From contig JAKFCY010000006.1 in the NCBI GenBank assembly GCA_036676395.1, forward strand, positions 1-24,801: a DNA stretch of 24,801 bases, in the 5' to 3' direction. This DNA is from Bdellovibrio sp. GTDB taxonomy: Bacteria > Bdellovibrionota > Bdellovibrionia > Bdellovibrionales > Bdellovibrionaceae. Positions 3,001 through 9,000 of this stretch are shown piece after piece. Position 1 is the first letter of the stretch; each line of letters opens with the position of its first letter. Position numbers: made by a program.

Positions 3001-6000
3001 GCAAAAACCACAAGAAAAATCCTAGAATTATTATTGGTGAGAGGAAAAATATTGTCTTTGTTATAGGTCTTTGGTTCAGCAAGTCAATCAGTTTTTCGGA
3101 CTTTATTAAAAGCGAGTAGGCTAATCCGAAGAAAAGTCCGACTAGAATTGCTTGGGGCAAAAACATTGTCACTAACTCAAAACTTCGAAAAAGGCCACCT
3201 ACAATTATTGAATAAGTCAATGCTCCGTAAACTGTCGATAAAACGGTAAAAATTGGTGGTTTGAATAGTTTTTTTGAGTGGTCAAGTCGACTTAATGGCC
3301 AAATAATGAAAACTGACCACGCAATTGTTATAAAAAGTCCCGACCAAAAAATAATCACTCCACTATCGTCTGCTTTTCCGTCTTCTGAAACAAGGTAAAT
3401 TGAATTGAGTATGTTCATCAATGTCCAAGCTATGGTCATTGAGAAAAATCCAATTGTTTGTTTAACGTTATTTATTTTCAGTGTCGTCATTTTTACCTTG
3501 CCCATAACATCTCGCAAATACACGCAGGGCGTGAGTTTCCCGCTGAACTTCCTACGAAGAGCTGCATTTCAAATTTACTTCTTTCCTGTCAACGAAGCAC
3601 CGAAACCCAACTTGCGGGTATTTTGCGGTGTGTGCCTTGAATGGTGAATATAGGTCAATTAGTTGATCGTTCCAACGGGTAAAATGCGAAGCATTCATGA
3701 ACACCATTGAATACAAATACTTCGTGAATAAAGTCCCTTTAGCACGGGGGTAATCCCGTAGGGAAGGGAAAGGCTGTTCCGAAGCTAAGCAAGTGGTGGC
3801 GGTAGCTATCGGCATGGTTTACCGCGAGAGGACTGAGCGTTAAGAAAATATCCTGTGGATATTTTTAGTGAGGGGCCAGGCTGCGGACCAGCCTCCTTTT
3901 CTGCCTACTACTATAACTTTGTCATGGCTGAGAAGAAAAGGGTATGAATCGATGCTATCCTACTACCTCAAAACGCAACCTACAATCCAGTGAACCGCCG
4001 TATACGAGACCCGTACGTACGGTGGTGTGAGAGGCGCACCTCGTCAGAGAAATCTGGCGAGGCCGTCTACTCGATTACAAGCTGGGCTTCTGTCTGTGTT
4101 TGTATGTTCGTCAATAGCTGTCAAGTTTTTCCTTTAATTAATTTGTCAAGCTCGTTCGCATAGTTAGCAAGAATTAAATTTACTTCTTTCATTGAAGTTA
4201 CAAGGTTCTCAAAGTCAGGATATTTCTTTTGCAGCTCTTGTGGAGAAAGTCTCTTATTAATTTCTTCTTCCTTTGCGTTTTCAAGCCACTTACGAAACTT
4301 TGCGTGGTGTTCTGTCAAGTGCGGACGCAAACCATCATTTAATATTTTTCTTGTCAAGCCAATTAGTGCTTTTGTTGGGTCGTGGTCTTTCAAATATCTA
4401 CCCGGAACTGTTTTAATTTCGTCTCTTATGATGTTGAATAGCTTATACCAAGAGTCATAAATCTCTTCAATGCTGTCATTATTTTCGTCAATAAGTATTG
4501 CCGCCTTTCTTGTAGTTAATTCAATGTGAATTCGATTAGCGATGTATAAATTGTCGTGGTTACGTTCAACTTTAAAAACCATTTTAGGAGTTCCAGAAAT
4601 TTCGACTTCTAAATTTTGCCACCTGAATAATTTTGAAAATTGTCTTTTCAAAATTATCAGAGCAATTATGATAGCTAATATAATCCCTATGAAAATCCAA
4701 TCACTAGAAATTATTAGGGAAGGTTGTTTTCTTTCAAAAGCAACTCGAATAAGTTCGTGTGTTGAAGTGGTGTCTGTCATAGTTATTGCCATTTGTCACT
4801 GGTTCTATTGTTCGCAAAGATTGGATATGAATTGTCGGGCGTAATCTTGTTCCTGTCCTCAAATGCTTTGTGTATCCAACCTTGAACTTCCGCTGGATTT
4901 TTAGACCATTTATATAATTGTGCAAATCTATTTTTTTCATCTTTCCAATTGTCATAAAGTCTTGGAGGAATTGTATGTGGGTCAAATTTATTGTCGTTTA
5001 AAGGGTAGCTAGGCATGAAAATACCTAATAACCCAGAACGTGAATTAAATTGTGTTTGTCTTATACTTGAGCCAATTTCCCAATCAACGTGTTTTCGTTG
5101 CCAAGTGTTGTTTCCAATAAGCACAATGGTTACGGTAGAATCTCTTAAATATTCATCTCTAATTTTTTGTCTGATAGTTTCAGTTTGTAAGTTGGGAGCA
5201 ATTTCACCAATTTGAACTGATTTACTTATCATTATTTGGTGATAGTTTGCGAATAGTGCCTCAAATTGATTGCGATAAGTTTGGTCAGGCTCCGTATGGT
5301 GATAACTTACAAATACCTTATGAATGTTTGTTGCCATATTTTTAAAGTTTAAATCCTAAAAAGTTTATTGAATTACTTTCCTCACGTTCACGAGAATTAT
5401 TTATTTTGTATGCGTTATTAGTCCTGTTCCAGTAAGCATAGTTTACCTTGCTTTCAAAATCTCTTTCTAAATTTTCCCATTTCATACTAACTGCATATCC
5501 AGATTTTATATTGTCGGCTAATCTGTCAGGTACAGAATGACTGTCAGTTGGTAGGAAGATTGCCAAAAGCCCATTTGGCTTAAATGATTTCAAGGGGTCG
5601 TATGGATGGGTGTAACTTCGCAGGGATGCCCAAATCTCCCAGTCTATCCATTTTCGATATCCTGTTCTTGAACCAACTAAAACAACGGTCACGGAGCAGT
5701 TCCTCATTTTCTCACGAACCTTCTTATAAATTGTTTCATCTGTCAAGTGTCCAATGTCGTCTTTTAAAGAGTAGTCAGCCACTCTCATATTCGTAATGGT
5801 CTTGCGAAGTTTTGTCAAATATTTTTGGTCGTTGTCGTGATGGTAGCTCACAAAACAATTTCGTATTTTCTTTTCTATTGGCATTTATGAAGTAATTATT
5901 GCGTCCATAACGCCACTTAACGGGTGTACTGAACTACTATAGTTAGAAAACATTTTTCTTTCAAGAATAAGTTGTTTCTCTTGTCCTTGCTTCTTGATAA

Positions 6001-9000
6001 ATTCATTTATATCGTAAATATCTCGAATTATGGGTTTTGTTTTGATGTAATCAGGAAGGTCTGAATTTTTTATTCCTTTTAAAGTTAATGTTGCTAGGTC
6101 TGTTACATCATAGCCGTATCCAACTTCAAATGGAACCCATTTGGAAATCAATGTATTTGGAGAAACAATACAAAGCATATGTGTCGAACTTTTAATTCCT
6201 TTTTTAATGGCCGCAACAACAGCTTTAGGGTCGTTGTTTATGTCTGCTTGTTGTAATTCTTTATCAAACTCATCAAAGTAAACTGCTATGCCAACTGATA
6301 TTAAATAGTCAGCAATTTTTTTTGCCTCGTCTCTGTCACGTTTTTGGTGGCTTATAAATACTTTCATTTTTGTCAATAGTGTTTAATTGTTGATGTGTCG
6401 TCTGTTAGCCTTGCTTGTAACGTTTTGCAGCTACCTGAAGGGCGGGATTTTTACCACAAAACTACATTTGAAAAACTAATGTTTGTTTAACCACAAAACT
6501 GTCTTTGGAACACGAAACCCCGGCTTTTGGGTAGGTGCTGTTGCACTAAACCTGCGGTAGTTTCATATTCAATCTAAAATTTCTACTTTAGGTACGCTTA
6601 CGGTTCCAGATTTTAAAATTTTAACATTTGTAACCATCTGAAAGTCAAGCATTTGATTTTTTTTATTTTATGCGAATTTTTATAATTTAAATCACTGATT
6701 TTCAATTTCTTATAAGATTTTTCAATAGCGACGAAAAACCCATATATAAGGTGTCTCAATTCCGGTTCCCCCGAAAAAATCGGGGCAGGCAGTGCAACAG
6801 CGGTTTCAATGTCCGTGCTACGCACTCGACGAAAACCTAGTTGTTATGTGCTGGCATTGTATTAGGTTTCAACATGTCATACTCTATTTTTAACAATCAA
6901 TACTTCTTTTCCACTACCGTCTTCACCAATAAGGTATACTATTTTCATGTCTTTGTTTACGTTATTATAAACAACTCTTTTAAAACCCATTCTATGTTTA
7001 TTCTTTTCAAGTGGTTTTCCCCATAAAATTGTAAAATAAAAAGCAATAGTTCCATATTCAGAGGTTTCCATTGATATTGTGCCTTTCCATTGGTGATCGA
7101 TTTTTTCCGTATAATTATCGTGCATAGTTTGTTTGTGTGTAATTTCTAATTTGTTTTTTCTCAAATATTTAATTTCAGCCTCACCCATTGGTTTGTTGAA
7201 ATCAATTTCATCACCTTCTTTATCGATCCAATAGATGTCATATTTATTAGAAAGATTATTGAATTTTAAATAGGGTATCAGGATTTCTGTTATTAGTAGA
7301 ACAATACCTGTAGCAACAAGCGAAGTTATTATTGGTACTAGTAGTCCATCGGTTATGAAGCTTGAATCTTCGGTAATTGGAAAATATTCGCACCAAAGGG
7401 GAAAAAGATTTTTCATGTACATAAATGTCTTGTGTTGGTTTTATGCTTGCACATAACGTTTTGCGGCTAAAAGAAGTGGCGGCTTTGGAACACTAAACCT
7501 TCTATACACACACTGTTTATTAATTGCACAACTGTTTATACTTGCACTTCTCCCGCCATTTTTTTAGGTGCTGTTATGAGCCGTTTTTATATCAATCCTT
7601 TGTCTATTAGAAATTGTGTTTTAAACATTGAAAATTCTTTATCAGATTTTGCATTATCTATTATTTCGTCAAGAAGAATAGCTTGAAGTCCCACTGTTAG
7701 TTCTCGTGTATACTTGTCAATTAAATTTTGAAGTTCCTTTAATGCATCAGAACGCCTTTCAATTAGTTCTTTTCTGTTTAATTTTATTTCCTTCCATGTC
7801 AGCTCTCCTCTTTTACTGTCATTAATATGGAACAACATTGGGCCAAATGCCTGTAAATGTAAATCAACATCATCTTTATAAGGATTCAAAAGTTTACAAT
7901 TTTTATCTAATGTCGTTCTCTTATTGTTATTGCACCAATAACAAACAAATGATAAGTTATTCCAAGAAAATGTTAAACGTGGATAAACTGATTTAGGAAT
8001 TATATGTTCAACATCACCAGGATATTGATGAGTGATAAAACACTCGCAGTAAATACATTTTTCCTCTGTCTCAATCTTTACTTCAGTCTTAATGTCCGCA
8101 TGTCTGTAATGAGCTTGAACATGCGTTGGAACAGGTAGTCCAGAATTAATGAAACCCATTAATTGTTGTGTCCAATTTGGTCCGTTTACTAATAGAACGT
8201 TTGGTGCTGGTCTCTTTAATCGCTTTATCATTTCTTTTTACTTTTTTCAATTAACGTTGCAACTGAAGTAGAAACATATTTATCTAGCCCTACTTTTTTA
8301 ATGTCAGACTTGAAGGATAAGATATTCTCTGGAGTAATACCAGAATCACTGTATTTTGTAATTATTTTGTCAAGTTCTTCGTCTACCCATTCAGGCATAG
8401 TTGTTTCAATCCCTAACACTTCCCTAAGAATGTCATTAGCGCTTCCAGATTTTTCAATATTTTCAAGAAGAATTGAGTCTACTTTACCATTAGCATTGTA
8501 ATTCAAAACAAAAACATTTGAGTCAGGAACTGAACTTATAATAAATGGATTATGAGTCGCAATAATAAATTGTACGTTTGGAAATGCTTTTAAAAAGTTG
8601 GGCAGAAGAGATTTTTGCATCTCAGGATGCAAATGATTTTCAGGCTCGTCTAATGTTACAACATATTCTTTTTGAGGTTCCTCAAACATATAAAGTTGCC
8701 AAGCAAGGTCTATAATTGAAGCTATTCCTCCAGAAACTGCATCTAAAGAGAAGTCTCCTGATCGAGTTATTAAAACTACTTCAGGTATTCGAATTGCTAT
8801 TTTCTCAAATCCTAACTTTGGAGGAAGGATTATTTTTAAAATTTCTTCAAATCCTCTAAAAATATTAACTGCCTCGCTATTTCTAATTACTACTTCATTT
8901 CCAAAGCCAAATGTTGCAAGTGAAATTAAAGTTTCCTTAATATGGTAGTTCTCGAATTTACCCCCACCACTTTGATACCGATTTACTTTTGCTTGATTAT

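Follow-up and report, generated by a model that had tools for sequence, protein, structure and literature searches.

A Thoeris-like operon in Bdellovibrio sp. pairs three TIR genes with a candidate membrane effector of no catalogued family

Introduction

Thoeris loci typically hold several diverse thsB copies around one effector gene (PMC7272460). In a 2025 preprint that lists 29 putative Thoeris types (10.64898/2025.12.03.692087), the type II effector is described as transmembrane (TM) helices joined to a Macro domain, with His-ADPR as the signal; type III as several TIR proteins with the SLOG-domain effector ThsD; the type V/VII effectors as ThsF (DUF2270) and ThsH (SLATT); and the type VI effector as ThsG (DUF6650, PF20355), which has 2'cADPR as its signal and was modelled by the authors as a homo-oligomeric ring. 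A 163-aa ThsB-like TIR protein is also described, together with Nmad2, 5-hmdU kinase, and thymidylate-synthase genes, in the E. coli system DS-4 ("NTTI," DefensePredictor) (PMC13092281).

Here, we describe an operon in the window, the 24,801-nt stretch of Bdellovibrio sp. contig JAKFCY010000006.1 that was analyzed, in which three ThsB-type TIR genes precede a gene for a predicted membrane protein, EFF (g03220). The operon is probably a Thoeris-type TIR-based anti-phage signaling system with EFF as its membrane effector.

Results

Operon layout and genomic setting

The operon runs along the minus strand (6367..4121) and consists of four tightly packed ORFs arranged head to tail, with intergenic gaps of 0, 4, and 2 nt in the order TIR-A, TIR-B, TIR-C, and EFF. 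The features of the locus are as follows.

5885..6367, minus strand: TIR-A, 160 aa, TIR_2-type ThsB-like protein, TIR cluster c2
5342..5884, minus strand: TIR-B, 180 aa, ThsB-type TIR protein, cluster c0
4783..5337, minus strand: TIR-C, 184 aa, ThsB-type TIR protein, cluster c0, after a 4-nt gap from TIR-B
4121..4780, minus strand: EFF (g03220), 219 aa and a stop codon; predicted membrane protein of an uncatalogued family, candidate signal-activated effector
4628..4699, minus strand: residues 28-51 of EFF, its one transmembrane helix; N terminus predicted outside and C terminus inside
4124..4621, minus strand: residues 54-219 of EFF, predicted cytoplasmic domain with a beta-hairpin and then a helical bundle; conserved portable module
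6377..6876, no strand: upstream intergenic region with interspersed repeats and a TAnnTTTG motif
3524..4120, no strand: downstream intergenic region built of interspersed repeats, with an Rfam group II intron match

The ATG of TIR-B lies immediately 3' of the TIR-A stop codon, and TIR-A has a longer ORF with a TTG start at 6376. The length of 218 aa given for g03220 in the genome-wide survey's note is typical of the homologues; in the window, the ATG at 4780 yields 219 aa, and an in-frame ATG upstream at 4792 would yield 223 aa.

Domain matches reconfirmed the neighbors named in that note, namely, the Septu genes ptuA (1e-165) and ptuB (1.6e-66), a PD-T7-4 gene (2e-80), and BlaI/BlaR, and by these matches the operon lies in a defense island with Septu and PD-T7-4. 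The G+C content was 0.31 to 0.36 over the 4- to 10-kb section, compared with 0.40 to 0.47 on the flanks, as expected for an island. No SIR2, SLOG, or Macro domain was found in the window ORFs (at least 80 aa at 3.5 to 10 kb and at least 100 aa elsewhere), in agreement with the earlier statement that ThsA is missing.

The intergenic repeats on both sides of the operon recur on 12 further contigs of this assembly, those upstream being common to C110, C47, C126, C65, C46, C139, C136, C131, and C50 and those downstream having copies elsewhere on the same contig and on C126, C50, C91, C121, and C107. Housekeeping genes farther along the contig showed a 70 to 80% match to a same-genus genome. The earlier concern that this contig (C6) might be mis-binned is thus not supported. 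EFF was found in this genome only, among 41 relatives searched, which fits recent acquisition. The downstream region contains a match to Rfam RF00029 (group II intron domain V/VI) at 3993-4075 on the plus strand, scoring 41.7 bits (gathering score, 40). A Bacteroidota-style TAnnTTTG sequence lies at 6464..6457 on the minus strand, approximately 90 nt before TIR-A; it is a candidate promoter only, because the count of this motif across the window was at chance level (34 found versus 32.8 expected).

The three TIR proteins

The identification of g03221-23 as ThsB-type TIR genes was borne out by Pfam (TIR-A, TIR_2 at 1e-12 and ThsB_TIR at 1.7e-07; TIR-B, ThsB_TIR at 7.7e-19; TIR-C, ThsB_TIR at 1e-19), by the PADLOC ThsB models (TIR-A, 1.9e-14; TIR-B, 2.4e-12; the third protein, 6.2e-11), and by the retention of the W-x-x-x-E Glu in all three proteins. 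TIR-B (6.5e-13) and TIR-C (3.3e-10) also matched the PADLOC model PDC-M50B, and TIR-A faintly resembled nucleoside 2-deoxyribosyltransferase (E 0.099). In searches against the PDB, TIR-A matched 8btn_B (9.3e-05), and its W-x-P-x-E motif fell within the alignment, TIR-B matched 9vyl_A (6.7e-06) and Bacillus cereus ThsB 6lhy_A (3.8e-05), and TIR-C matched 9vyl_A (0.012) with WEI aligned to WEI; 9vyl_A, a "cyclic ADP-D-ribose synthase TIR1" chain, is the nearest solved relative of both TIR-B and TIR-C, which are 33% identical to each other. Conservation of the motif Glu was at least 90% within every one of the three TIR clusters, including c2 (TIR-A; 16 members), and in the 50 sequences of c0, D85 and W86 were invariant and E87 was at least 90% conserved (TIR-C numbering). 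Judged from sequence, the three proteins are divergent ThsB-type TIRs related to solved ThsB/TIR cyclases.

Among related loci, TIR-A is an optional upstream copy, and TIR-C is the copy directly upstream of EFF in most cases.

EFF family and structural models

Searches with EFF returned no family in Pfam (best E 0.031), none in PADLOC at E <= 1, and none in NCBIfam, and there was neither a sequence match nor a fold match in the PDB. The best Foldseek PDB E value was 0.25, replacing the 0.08 reported previously, and there were 836 relatives at E <= 0.001, replacing the earlier figure of 545; the 120 listed relatives had no Pfam domain. When EFF and 82 relatives were compared with PADLOC, no consistent model emerged (10 models, one member each; best E 4e-4). 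The family therefore appears uncatalogued in Pfam, PADLOC, NCBIfam, and the PDB, as the survey had held, and its priority relative to the 29 putative Thoeris types is uncertain.

An AlphaFold2 model based on an 83-sequence alignment had a pLDDT of 90.6, compared with 71 previously, and a pTM of 0.79. It contains a helix at residues 28-51, a beta-hairpin, and a helical bundle, in keeping with the earlier description of one N-terminal hydrophobic helix and a helical body. The hydrophobic segment was present in 83/83 aligned members, and in 79 of the 83 its C-terminal flank was richer in K+R, which by the positive-inside rule predicts an outside N terminus and a cytoplasmic C-terminal domain. Apart from the single membrane helix, no recognizable enzymatic or pore motif was found in EFF. 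The predicted cytoplasmic domain contains the invariant residues A81, R91, D102, R119, R152, and L155 and the near-invariant residues K92, Y108, S110, W111, Y112, N148, H154, W165, Q181, and Q184. Among 150 cluster representatives, 114 had a TM helix, 18 had a soluble N-terminal domain of 100 to 190 aa, and approximately 13 consisted of the C-terminal domain alone; the C-terminal domain is also joined to soluble N termini in longer relatives, as would be expected of a sensor module.

A four-copy model of EFF with a head-to-tail interface, to which residues 19-28 contribute, scored better than its controls (0.44 versus 0.00), in a job that used a custom-built alignment and lay outside the calibration of the tool, which covers two copies. 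Conserved residues showed no enrichment at the modelled contact between protomers (Mann-Whitney p 0.62), which leaves an inter-protomer ligand pocket unsupported.

Association of EFF with TIR genes and its exchange for known effector types

The neighborhoods of the best 80 of 225 EFF relatives in genome contigs, representing approximately 18 phylum-level groups, were examined; in phylogenetic terms these loci are not independent samples, and the mobility of the cassette is clear. A Pfam-confirmed TIR gene lay within 3 kb of EFF in 74/80 loci, and a same-strand TIR gene lay within 150 bp in 51 and within 1 kb in 70 of them. The recurrence of the pairing in distant phyla, previously seen in 15/19 loci, was thereby borne out. 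TIR genes numbered 106 within 3 kb and 7 at 3 to 6 kb, and Pfam confirmed 101/105 of the TIR calls. Of the six loci with no TIR gene within 3 kb, two were truncated by the end of a contig, and three encoded soluble long forms. On two plasmids, independent RefSeq annotation shows EFF homologues with adjacent TIR genes. The partners belonged to three TIR subfamilies and also included large multidomain TIR proteins, a pattern more easily reconciled with a diffusible product common to them than with a single fixed protein contact.

The exchange of effectors beside one TIR clade is the literature's argument for naming a Thoeris effector. In the reciprocal search, 80 metagenome loci contained a TIR protein at least 52% identical to TIR-C, and 67 were usable (at least 300 bp downstream). 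EFF was directly downstream in 33/67, elsewhere in the locus in 10/67, and absent in 24/67. Ten of the 24 loci without EFF contained a SLOG-cluster2 protein, five of these being TIR-SLOG fusions, and others contained one SLATT/DUF4231 protein and one CAP12/Pycsar-type TIR. That one TIR clade adjoins EFF in some loci and SLOG-cluster2 or SLATT proteins in others is the strongest argument for EFF as an alternative effector, and together with the TIR neighborhood, it supports the survey's proposal of g03220 as a candidate Thoeris-type effector.

Discussion

Because TIR genes are its near-constant neighbors, EFF most likely serves a Thoeris-type anti-phage system as a killing or arrest switch of a new kind. 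The three ThsB-like TIRs would act as infection sensors and signal makers that, upon sensing phage, use NAD+ to make a small molecule derived from ADP-ribose. EFF would fill the slot taken in known Thoeris types by SIR2-SLOG, Macro-TM, SLOG, or SLATT proteins. Held by its N-terminal helix, with the N terminus outside and the helical-bundle domain toward the cytoplasm, EFF may bind the signal through invariant Arg, Lys, His, and aromatic residues of that domain. Binding would then induce head-to-tail self-assembly into a ring or filament, and the gathered membrane helices could breach or depolarize the membrane, so that growth would stop before the phage cycle is completed and phage protection would result.

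The roles might instead be reversed, with the TIRs acting as NAD+-depleting effectors and EFF as a membrane-sited sensor or anchor of phage entry or membrane stress that switches them on. NADase effector TIR domains occur in several other defense systems, a caveat that the authors of the Thoeris survey raise for their own unverified types (10.64898/2025.12.03.692087), and the short N-terminal segment of EFF is predicted outside the cell, residues 19-28 are in the modelled interface, and TIR-C and EFF are nearly translationally coupled. However, the same TIR clade adjoins effectors of ligand-sensing types (SLOG-cluster2 and SLATT proteins), and pairing with at least three unrelated TIR subfamilies would be hard for a specific protein-protein activator. 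Moreover, it is the cytoplasmic domain of EFF that is conserved; about one-fifth of the cluster representatives lack the membrane helix or have it replaced. The TIR of the DS-4 type also functions in E. coli without EFF. We therefore regard reversed roles as unlikely. Slightly less likely still is that EFF is a very divergent DUF6650 protein (ThsG) and the operon a type VI variant signaling via 2'cADPR. ThsG, like EFF, is described as having no similarity to known domains and as occurring with or without N-terminal TM helices (10.64898/2025.12.03.692087), and an ESM Atlas cluster with DUF6650 on 13% of its members appeared at rank 16 (score 0.77). In the AlphaFold2 models, the first two helices and their loop appear equal in length (H75-90, a 13-residue loop, and H104-123 in EFF; H26-40, a 13-residue loop, and H54-73 in DUF6650). 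Permissive hhalign gave a collinear alignment over 139 columns, and forward hmmsearch scores were slightly above those of reversed controls (6.8 versus 3.8 bits and 4.3 versus 0.3 bits). Against this reading, hhalign of the two alignments gave E values of 0.086 to 0.25 and a score (14.3) below those of reversed-profile controls (16.0 and 16.1), PF20355 was listed neither for EFF nor among the 25 of 128 families listed for the 83 aligned members (E <= 1), a search of the 80 TIR-C loci with the DUF6650 HMM gave no match, and the C-terminal halves differ in their invariant motifs.

We give still less weight to a DS-4-like nucleotide or DNA base-modification defense, in which the TIR-like fold would act on a modified nucleotide rather than NAD+ and EFF would be an accessory. 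DS-4, with thymidylate synthase, dNMP kinase, 5-hmdU kinase, TIR, and Nmad2, is reported as a validated E. coli defense (PMC13092281), and Nmad2, HMUDK_hel, thymidylate-synthase-like, or MazG_C genes are found in 22/80 EFF loci, including 6 of the 13 closest to the window EFF (60 to 91% identity); in these, Nmad2 separates the TIR gene from EFF within one operon of overlapping genes (e.g., L026 3514-6585). The faint deoxyribosyltransferase match of TIR-A points the same way. Such genes are nevertheless absent from the window and, within approximately 6 kb, from 58/80 EFF loci; the DS-4 type TIR forms a separate cluster, c1, apart from c0 and c2 of the window; and the c0 TIRs are those that exchange EFF for SLOG or SLATT proteins. 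Because EFF belongs to DS-4-like cassettes (thymidylate-synthase-like, 5-hmdU kinase, TIR, and Nmad2 genes) in 22/80 loci and the E. coli version, DS-4, defends without it, the chemistry of the TIR partner need not be NAD-derived signaling.

Comparison with known systems

PADLOC candidate PDC-M50 resembles the operon in that TIR-B and TIR-C match its PDC-M50B model, but PDC-M50A, whatever its identity, is not of the EFF family, given the lack of a consistent PADLOC model for EFF and 82 relatives. The DS-4 cassette type can hold an inserted EFF, as in the loci counted above, whereas DS-4 itself has no EFF, the window has no DS-4 genes, and the window TIRs fall in other clusters. ThsG, as described, is likewise a small helical domain with or without N-terminal TM helices and has opening elements of similar length, but it shows no significant sequence or profile similarity to EFF, and the conserved motifs differ. 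The effectors of types II and V/VII, as far as they are described, share the proposed logic of a membrane-anchored protein that senses a TIR-made molecule with its cytoplasmic part and is proposed to oligomerize and breach the membrane; EFF differs in having no Macro, DUF2270, or SLATT domain among the matches listed and one TM helix rather than two or three. Type III Thoeris differs in its effector, since the window has no SLOG protein and has in that position EFF, predicted to be a helical bundle anchored by one membrane helix. As described for type III, a row of small ThsB-type TIR genes precedes one non-TIR gene, and TIRs at least 52% identical to TIR-C adjoin SLOG-cluster2 in 10 of the 24 loci without EFF.

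The operon and its surroundings

Four nearly gapless minus-strand ORFs, running from 6367 to 4121, comprised three TIR genes (TIR-A, TIR-B, and TIR-C) followed by EFF, which encodes a candidate membrane effector. The features of the region are as follows.

Features of the operon and its surroundings
6367..5885, minus strand, TIR-A, 160 aa
5884..5342, minus strand, TIR-B, 180 aa; its ATG comes immediately after the stop codon of TIR-A
5337..4783, minus strand, TIR-C, 184 aa
4780..4121, minus strand, EFF, 219 aa counted from the ATG at 4780
3-2377, BlaI and BlaR
7587-9526, Septu genes PtuB and PtuA, E 1.6e-66 and 1e-165
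12757-13386, PD-T7-4, E 2e-80
3524-4120 and 6377-6876, with more copies at ~12179-12573 and 22894-23100, interspersed intergenic repeats, 72-100% identical

The TIR-C stop and the EFF start are 2 nt apart, which places a separate candidate effector gene within the TIR operon, as in Thoeris systems. An alternative in-frame ATG at 4792 would add 4 residues to EFF, the homologs of which are mostly 218 aa long. The genome-wide survey's note had described three TIR genes and EFF in one operon lying among BlaI/BlaR, Septu, and PD-T7-4 genes, and both the operon and its setting were confirmed by the ORFs and by Pfam and PADLOC matches. An anti-phage role for the operon is putative and is based on its location in a defense island (Septu, PD-T7-4). 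The G+C content dips to 0.31-0.36 between 4 and 10 kb of the window, and beyond ~14.7 kb there are ordinary repair and regulatory genes. Promoter and terminator scans gave signals at chance level only.

Several other ORFs of the island were without a Pfam family. A 181-aa ORF with one hydrophobic segment (6877-7422, minus strand), located between the operon and Septu, had a faint PADLOC match to PDC-M57B (E 0.0074). Four ORFs of 135-212 aa, at 9552-9959, 10787-12042, and 13383-13958 (-), had neither a Pfam nor a PADLOC family; one of them, of 191 aa, shares 4 nt with the beginning of the PD-T7-4 gene, whose partner it may be.

The three TIR proteins

In bacteria, Thoeris systems correspond to the TIR immune signaling of plants and animals. 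All three TIR genes matched ThsB_TIR or TIR_2 above the curated cut-offs of PF08937/PF13676 (E 1e-19, 7.7e-19, and 1e-12), as expected of ThsB-type TIR genes of Thoeris, and all three were labeled ThsB by PADLOC. TIR-B and TIR-C were 33% identical, and BLAST detected no similarity of TIR-A to either of them. Among PDB chains, TIR-B matched 9vyl_A, annotated as "cyclic ADP-D-ribose synthase TIR1" (E 6.7e-06), and Bacillus cereus ThsB 6lhy_A (E 3.8e-05); TIR-C matched 9vyl_A (E 0.012), and TIR-A matched 8btn_B (E 9.3e-05). In each comparison of TIR-A, TIR-B, and TIR-C with solved ThsB/TIR chains, the W-x-x-x-E motif was aligned, including its Glu, which corresponds to the catalytic residue (E85) of B. 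cereus ThsB.

Clustering of 104 small TIR proteins (≤330 aa) from related loci gave three main groups: c0, the TIR-B/TIR-C type, with 50 members; c1, with 21 members; and c2, the TIR-A type, with 16 members. The motif Glu was conserved in at least 90% of each group. According to PMC7272460, Thoeris typically has one effector gene accompanied by several diverse thsB copies.

TIR genes beside EFF in other genomes

A genome scan, limited to one genome per species, identified 225 EFF relatives; the analysis proceeded with the best 80 loci. ORFs were called in each locus, EFF was located with a profile of A1 (an alignment of 83 EFF sequences), and TIR genes were located with profiles iterated from the three TIR proteins of the window. 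A Pfam check of the 105 TIR calls confirmed 101 and removed 4, and 4 neighboring TIR genes found by Pfam were added. Among these best 80 of 225 loci, which are not independent samples because the cassette is evidently mobile, a same-strand TIR gene lay within 150 bp of EFF in 51 and within 1 kb in 70, and a TIR gene lay within 3 kb in 74. Within 3 kb of EFF there were 106 TIR genes, and 7 lay at 3-6 kb. The loci without a TIR gene were L020, L036, L049, L058, L062, and L069; two of these end at a contig edge just upstream, and three carry long soluble forms of EFF. According to their record titles, the loci came from Bacteroidota, several Pseudomonadota classes, Patescibacteria, Nitrospirota, Fibrobacterota, Chlorobiota, Ignavibacteriota, Spirochaetota, Planctomycetota, Acidobacteriota, Bacillota, Thermotogota, Chloroflexota, and Desulfobacterota, as well as from Methanosarcinaceae and Methanoregula archaea.

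Three layouts recurred. In the first, an optional c2 TIR gene and one or two c0 TIR genes precede EFF, which comes last; the window, with c2-c0-c0-EFF, has this layout. The second, found in 22 of the 80 loci, is a cassette that contains EFF and resembles DS-4, a five-gene Escherichia coli defense system. In the third, a long soluble EFF form is followed by larger TIR proteins (TIR-DeoR_C, TIR-DUF5919, and TIR proteins longer than 1200 aa). In RefSeq, an Aureispira plasmid (NZ_CP133672.1, 49576-54737) carries five consecutive genes annotated as TIR/nucleoside 2-deoxyribosyltransferase and then an EFF homolog, and a B. cereus plasmid carries a TIR gene and then a distant EFF homolog. The Aureispira locus adjoins an IS4 transposase and CRISPR-Cas genes (cas6/cas1). 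Phage-borne copies, which could have a possible sponge or anti-defense role, were sought in 50,697 phage records, and no match was found.

In L019 (2863-5739), a 958-aa protein with ParA-like, Roc, COR-A/COR-B, and TIR_2 regions is encoded directly upstream of the EFF homolog. In L051 (4375-4806), a DUF2188 protein is encoded just upstream of TIR-TIR-EFF genes; DUF2188 is named as another putative Thoeris effector in a December 2025 survey of Thoeris (10.64898/2025.12.03.692087).

Exchange of candidate effectors beside TIR-C-like genes

The reciprocal test started from A3, an alignment of 50 c0 TIR proteins. A scan of metagenome contigs identified 570 relatives; the best 80, all at least 52% identical to TIR-C, were kept, and 67 of these were usable, their sequence continuing for 300 bp or more past the TIR gene. 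EFF was directly downstream of the TIR-C-like gene in 33 of the 67 loci, elsewhere in the locus in 10, and absent in 24. From the 24 loci lacking EFF, 44 of the 74 non-TIR ORF pieces were submitted to Pfam, and 30 short or edge pieces were left out. A SLOG-cluster2 protein (PF18163) was present in 10 of the 24 loci (L092, L104, L118, L127, L140, L152, L155, L160, L166, and L169), in five of them as a TIR_2-SLOG fusion of ~700 aa. Furthermore, L162 encoded a SLATT/DUF4231 protein, and L168 encoded a CAP12/Pycsar-type TIR.

In the Thoeris survey, multiple TIR genes with a SLOG effector constitute type III, SLATT is the type VII effector, and effectors are nominated when one TIR cluster adjoins alternative partners (10.64898/2025.12.03.692087). 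By that reasoning, since the same TIR clade stands beside EFF, SLOG-cluster2, or SLATT proteins, EFF would be an alternative effector for the TIR-C clade. The comparative evidence for the Thoeris-type interpretation proposed in the genome-wide survey's note has become much stronger, and that interpretation is supported. The link of EFF to TIR proteins that elsewhere pair with SLOG effectors would offer a direct experimental path to its ligand.

The EFF family and its predicted fold

The EFF family is large and occurs in many phyla, including methanogenic archaea. A word-indexed search identified 836 relatives at E ≤ 0.001 among 1089 candidates, and an exhaustive search of cluster representatives (50%-identity clusters) identified 436 at the same threshold, 61 of them at E ≤ 1e-30. 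The family is absent from the Pfam, PADLOC, NCBIfam, and PDB sequence libraries: the best Pfam match of EFF (E 0.031) did not reach the cut-off, PADLOC gave no family at E ≤ 1, NCBIfam gave none at E ≤ 0.01, and the best match of the family profile to PDB sequences had an E value of 0.65. Likewise, the 120 EFF relatives listed (62-97% identity) contained no Pfam domain.

In the 83 sequences of A1, A81, R91, D102, R119, R152, and L155 were invariant, and E87, T90, K92, Y108, S110, W111, Y112, F115, L147, N148, H154, T156, W165, P180, Q181, and Q184 were nearly so. The set of invariant Arg, Lys, His, Trp, and Tyr residues is a candidate ligand site. An AlphaFold2 model based on A1 (mean pLDDT 90.6, pTM 0.79) begins with a short N-terminal hairpin (11-26) and a single long helix of hydrophobic residues (28-51); another hairpin (54-72) and helices at 75-90, 104-123, 127-171, and 190-216 follow. 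All 83 aligned members have the hydrophobic helix, and because 79 of them carry more Lys and Arg on the C-terminal side of it, the bundle should face the cytoplasm. Fold searches with EFF gave generic helical matches only, and in the ESM Atlas search with full-length EFF, every cluster scoring above 0.88 was unnamed.

A four-copy ESMFold2 run reached the mark set by the tool, with a median ipSAE of 0.44 (0.41, 0.44, and 0.50) versus 0.00 for the best control; at least 90% of the contacts agreed between runs, and the partner pLDDT was at least 72. The calibration, in which this mark was reached by 20 of 30 true pairs and by 1 of 23 single chains, relied on two copies and the tool's own alignments, and these rates are therefore only a rough guide to the EFF run. 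The modeled interface is directional, head to tail: one side consists of residues 75-90, 101-117, 170-180, and 215 and strand 19-28, and the other, on the next copy, of residues 116-131, 140-148, and 160-168. In this model, repetition of the interface would produce a ring or filament. A ligand pocket between protomers was considered and dropped because conserved residues were not enriched at the modeled interface (P = 0.62).

Modularity of EFF

A transmembrane helix was found in 114 of the 150 EFF cluster representatives listed. In 18 of the 150 (246-337 aa), a soluble N-terminal region of ~100-190 aa replaces the helix, and ~13 others (121-193 aa) consist of the C-terminal domain alone, although truncated gene calls may account for some of them. 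The helix is swapped or missing across these forms, and therefore the portable, conserved unit is the cytoplasmic domain, as expected of a ligand-sensing and assembly module joined to different outputs. Among proteins of 385-2000 aa, neither TIR-EFF fusions nor other long forms were seen, a result rated by the tool as weak evidence.

Long forms (246-382 aa) include the relatives P0129, P0130, P0138, P0139, and P0142 and others and occur in L030, L031, L035, L036, L038, L048, L049, and L058; the TIR genes at these loci, where present, are downstream and larger (TIR-DeoR_C, TIR-DUF5919). The N-terminal domain of the long forms resembles a helix-turn-helix by eye only. This domain has no family match: Pfam at curated cut-offs gave no hit for 22 long forms, and an ESM Atlas search with the N-terminal domain of one long form gave nothing above 0.84.

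Tentatively, and with more doubt than confidence, the C-terminal hairpin plus helical bundle could be an unrecognized sensor domain for a TIR-made nucleotide signal, a functional equivalent of SLOG, Macro, SAVED, and CARF wired to varied outputs; under the same doubtful reading, these outputs would be the membrane helix, the soluble domain that looks by eye like a helix-turn-helix, or nothing. To our knowledge, each new Thoeris effector type so far has brought with it either a signal molecule or a cell-killing mechanism that was also new. If the sensor reading is true, the signal molecule might differ from the known ADPR derivatives.

Origin of the contig

Interspersed repeats are present on both sides of the operon, within 597 bp downstream and 500 bp upstream, and copies occur at other sites of the contig as well as on contigs C126, C50, C91, C121, C107, C110, C47, C65, C46, C139, C136, and C131 of the same assembly. 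Genes at 14.7-24.8 kb showed 70-80% nucleotide identity to a same-genus genome. These two findings speak against the worry, raised in the genome-wide survey's note, that the contig was misbinned. The other possibility it had raised, recent transfer, fits the detection of EFF in 1 of 41 genomes searched (this genome; 24 of the others are of the same genus, and many are incomplete). These observations are read most simply as recent acquisition of the island, with the contig binned correctly.

The intergenic repeats bracket defense cassettes and are present on the 12 other contigs and in a same-genus genome; they may be sites of cassette exchange. In addition, an Rfam match to group II intron domain V/VI at 3993-4075 on the plus strand (41.7 bits versus a gathering score of 40) had no reverse-transcriptase ORF nearby, and the short repeat holding it recurs at 12703-12748 and 15916-15959 and on other contigs.

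Comparison with known systems

Thoeris types I, II, III, VI, and VII were weighed against the operon. No SIR2 or SLOG domain was matched in EFF or in any scanned ORF of the window, which separates the operon from type I Thoeris. Its three TIR genes agree with the several TIR genes of type III; no SLOG protein that could be the type III effector is encoded in the window. EFF has one transmembrane helix, but a type II assignment is opposed by its Macro results: EFF had no Macro match at E ≤ 1, and Macro was not in the list of families for its 83 relatives. EFF also had no SLATT/DUF4231 match, and its single helix differs from the two transmembrane helices of the SLATT domain of type VII and CBASS. 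The type VI effector ThsG (DUF6650) was weighed more closely; an ESM Atlas hit for EFF hinted at DUF6650, and ThsG likewise has an unexplained helical domain, with or without transmembrane helices (10.64898/2025.12.03.692087).

DUF6650 (PF20355) was not listed at E ≤ 1 for EFF, nor did it appear in the families shown for its 83 relatives. Comparison of A1 with A2, an alignment of 36 DUF6650 proteins, by hhalign gave an E value of 0.086 over 28 columns, and the EFF C-terminal domain alone scored 14.3, under the reversed-profile controls (16.0 and 16.1). With hmmsearch filters off, the forward score was 6.8 bits versus 3.8 reversed, and in the other direction it was 4.3 versus 0.3. The DUF6650 model (pLDDT 81.6) and the EFF model are both helical bundles in which, when lengths are compared, the first two helices and their connecting loop are equal. 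Homology to DUF6650 was tested in four ways, none of them judged to beat the controls, and EFF was not assigned to type VI; a very distant relationship to DUF6650 may exist.

The Thoeris survey predicted 29 types, some with unnamed transmembrane effectors (10.64898/2025.12.03.692087), which limits the novelty of EFF: the family may already be in that catalog of putative types, unstudied. The available text of the survey makes no mention of Nmad or thymidylate genes and gives no description of ThsJ, the type IX effector from B. cereus VD021 (10.64898/2025.12.03.692087), and a literature search found ThsJ or type IX in no other paper. EFF is also linked to DS-4 ("NTTI"), a validated E. coli defense system whose five genes encode a thymidylate synthase, an adenylate kinase, an HMUDK_hel protein, a 163-aa TIR flagged as a ThsB homolog, and Nmad2 (PMC13092281).

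In 22 of the best 80 of the 225 EFF loci (L008, L010-L013, L017, L018, L022, L026, L046, L053-L055, L060, L063, L065-L067, L079, L081, L082, and L085), EFF is the last or first gene of a DS-4-like cassette, the genes of which overlap (e.g., L026:3514-6585) and encode HMUDK_hel, a thymidylate-synthase-like protein, a ~92-aa ORF, a c1 ThsB-like TIR, Nmad2, and often MazG/MazG_C. The identities of the thymidylate-synthase-like, MazG, HMUDK, and Nmad2 genes were confirmed, and the c1 TIR and Nmad2 always co-occur in these cassettes. The cassettes show that EFF can also serve a DS-4-type TIR. The window has no thymidylate-synthase-like, 5-hmdU kinase, or Nmad2 gene, and the DS-4 link therefore leaves its reading unchanged. 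The E. coli DS-4 lacks EFF, whereas the EFF-bearing cassettes otherwise resemble it. Since the EFF domain stands next to the TIR-Nmad2 pair in these cassettes, DS-4 would run on TIR signaling if the sensor reading is true, and the presence of EFF in DS-4-like base-modification cassettes is a lead on how those validated, unexplained systems work.
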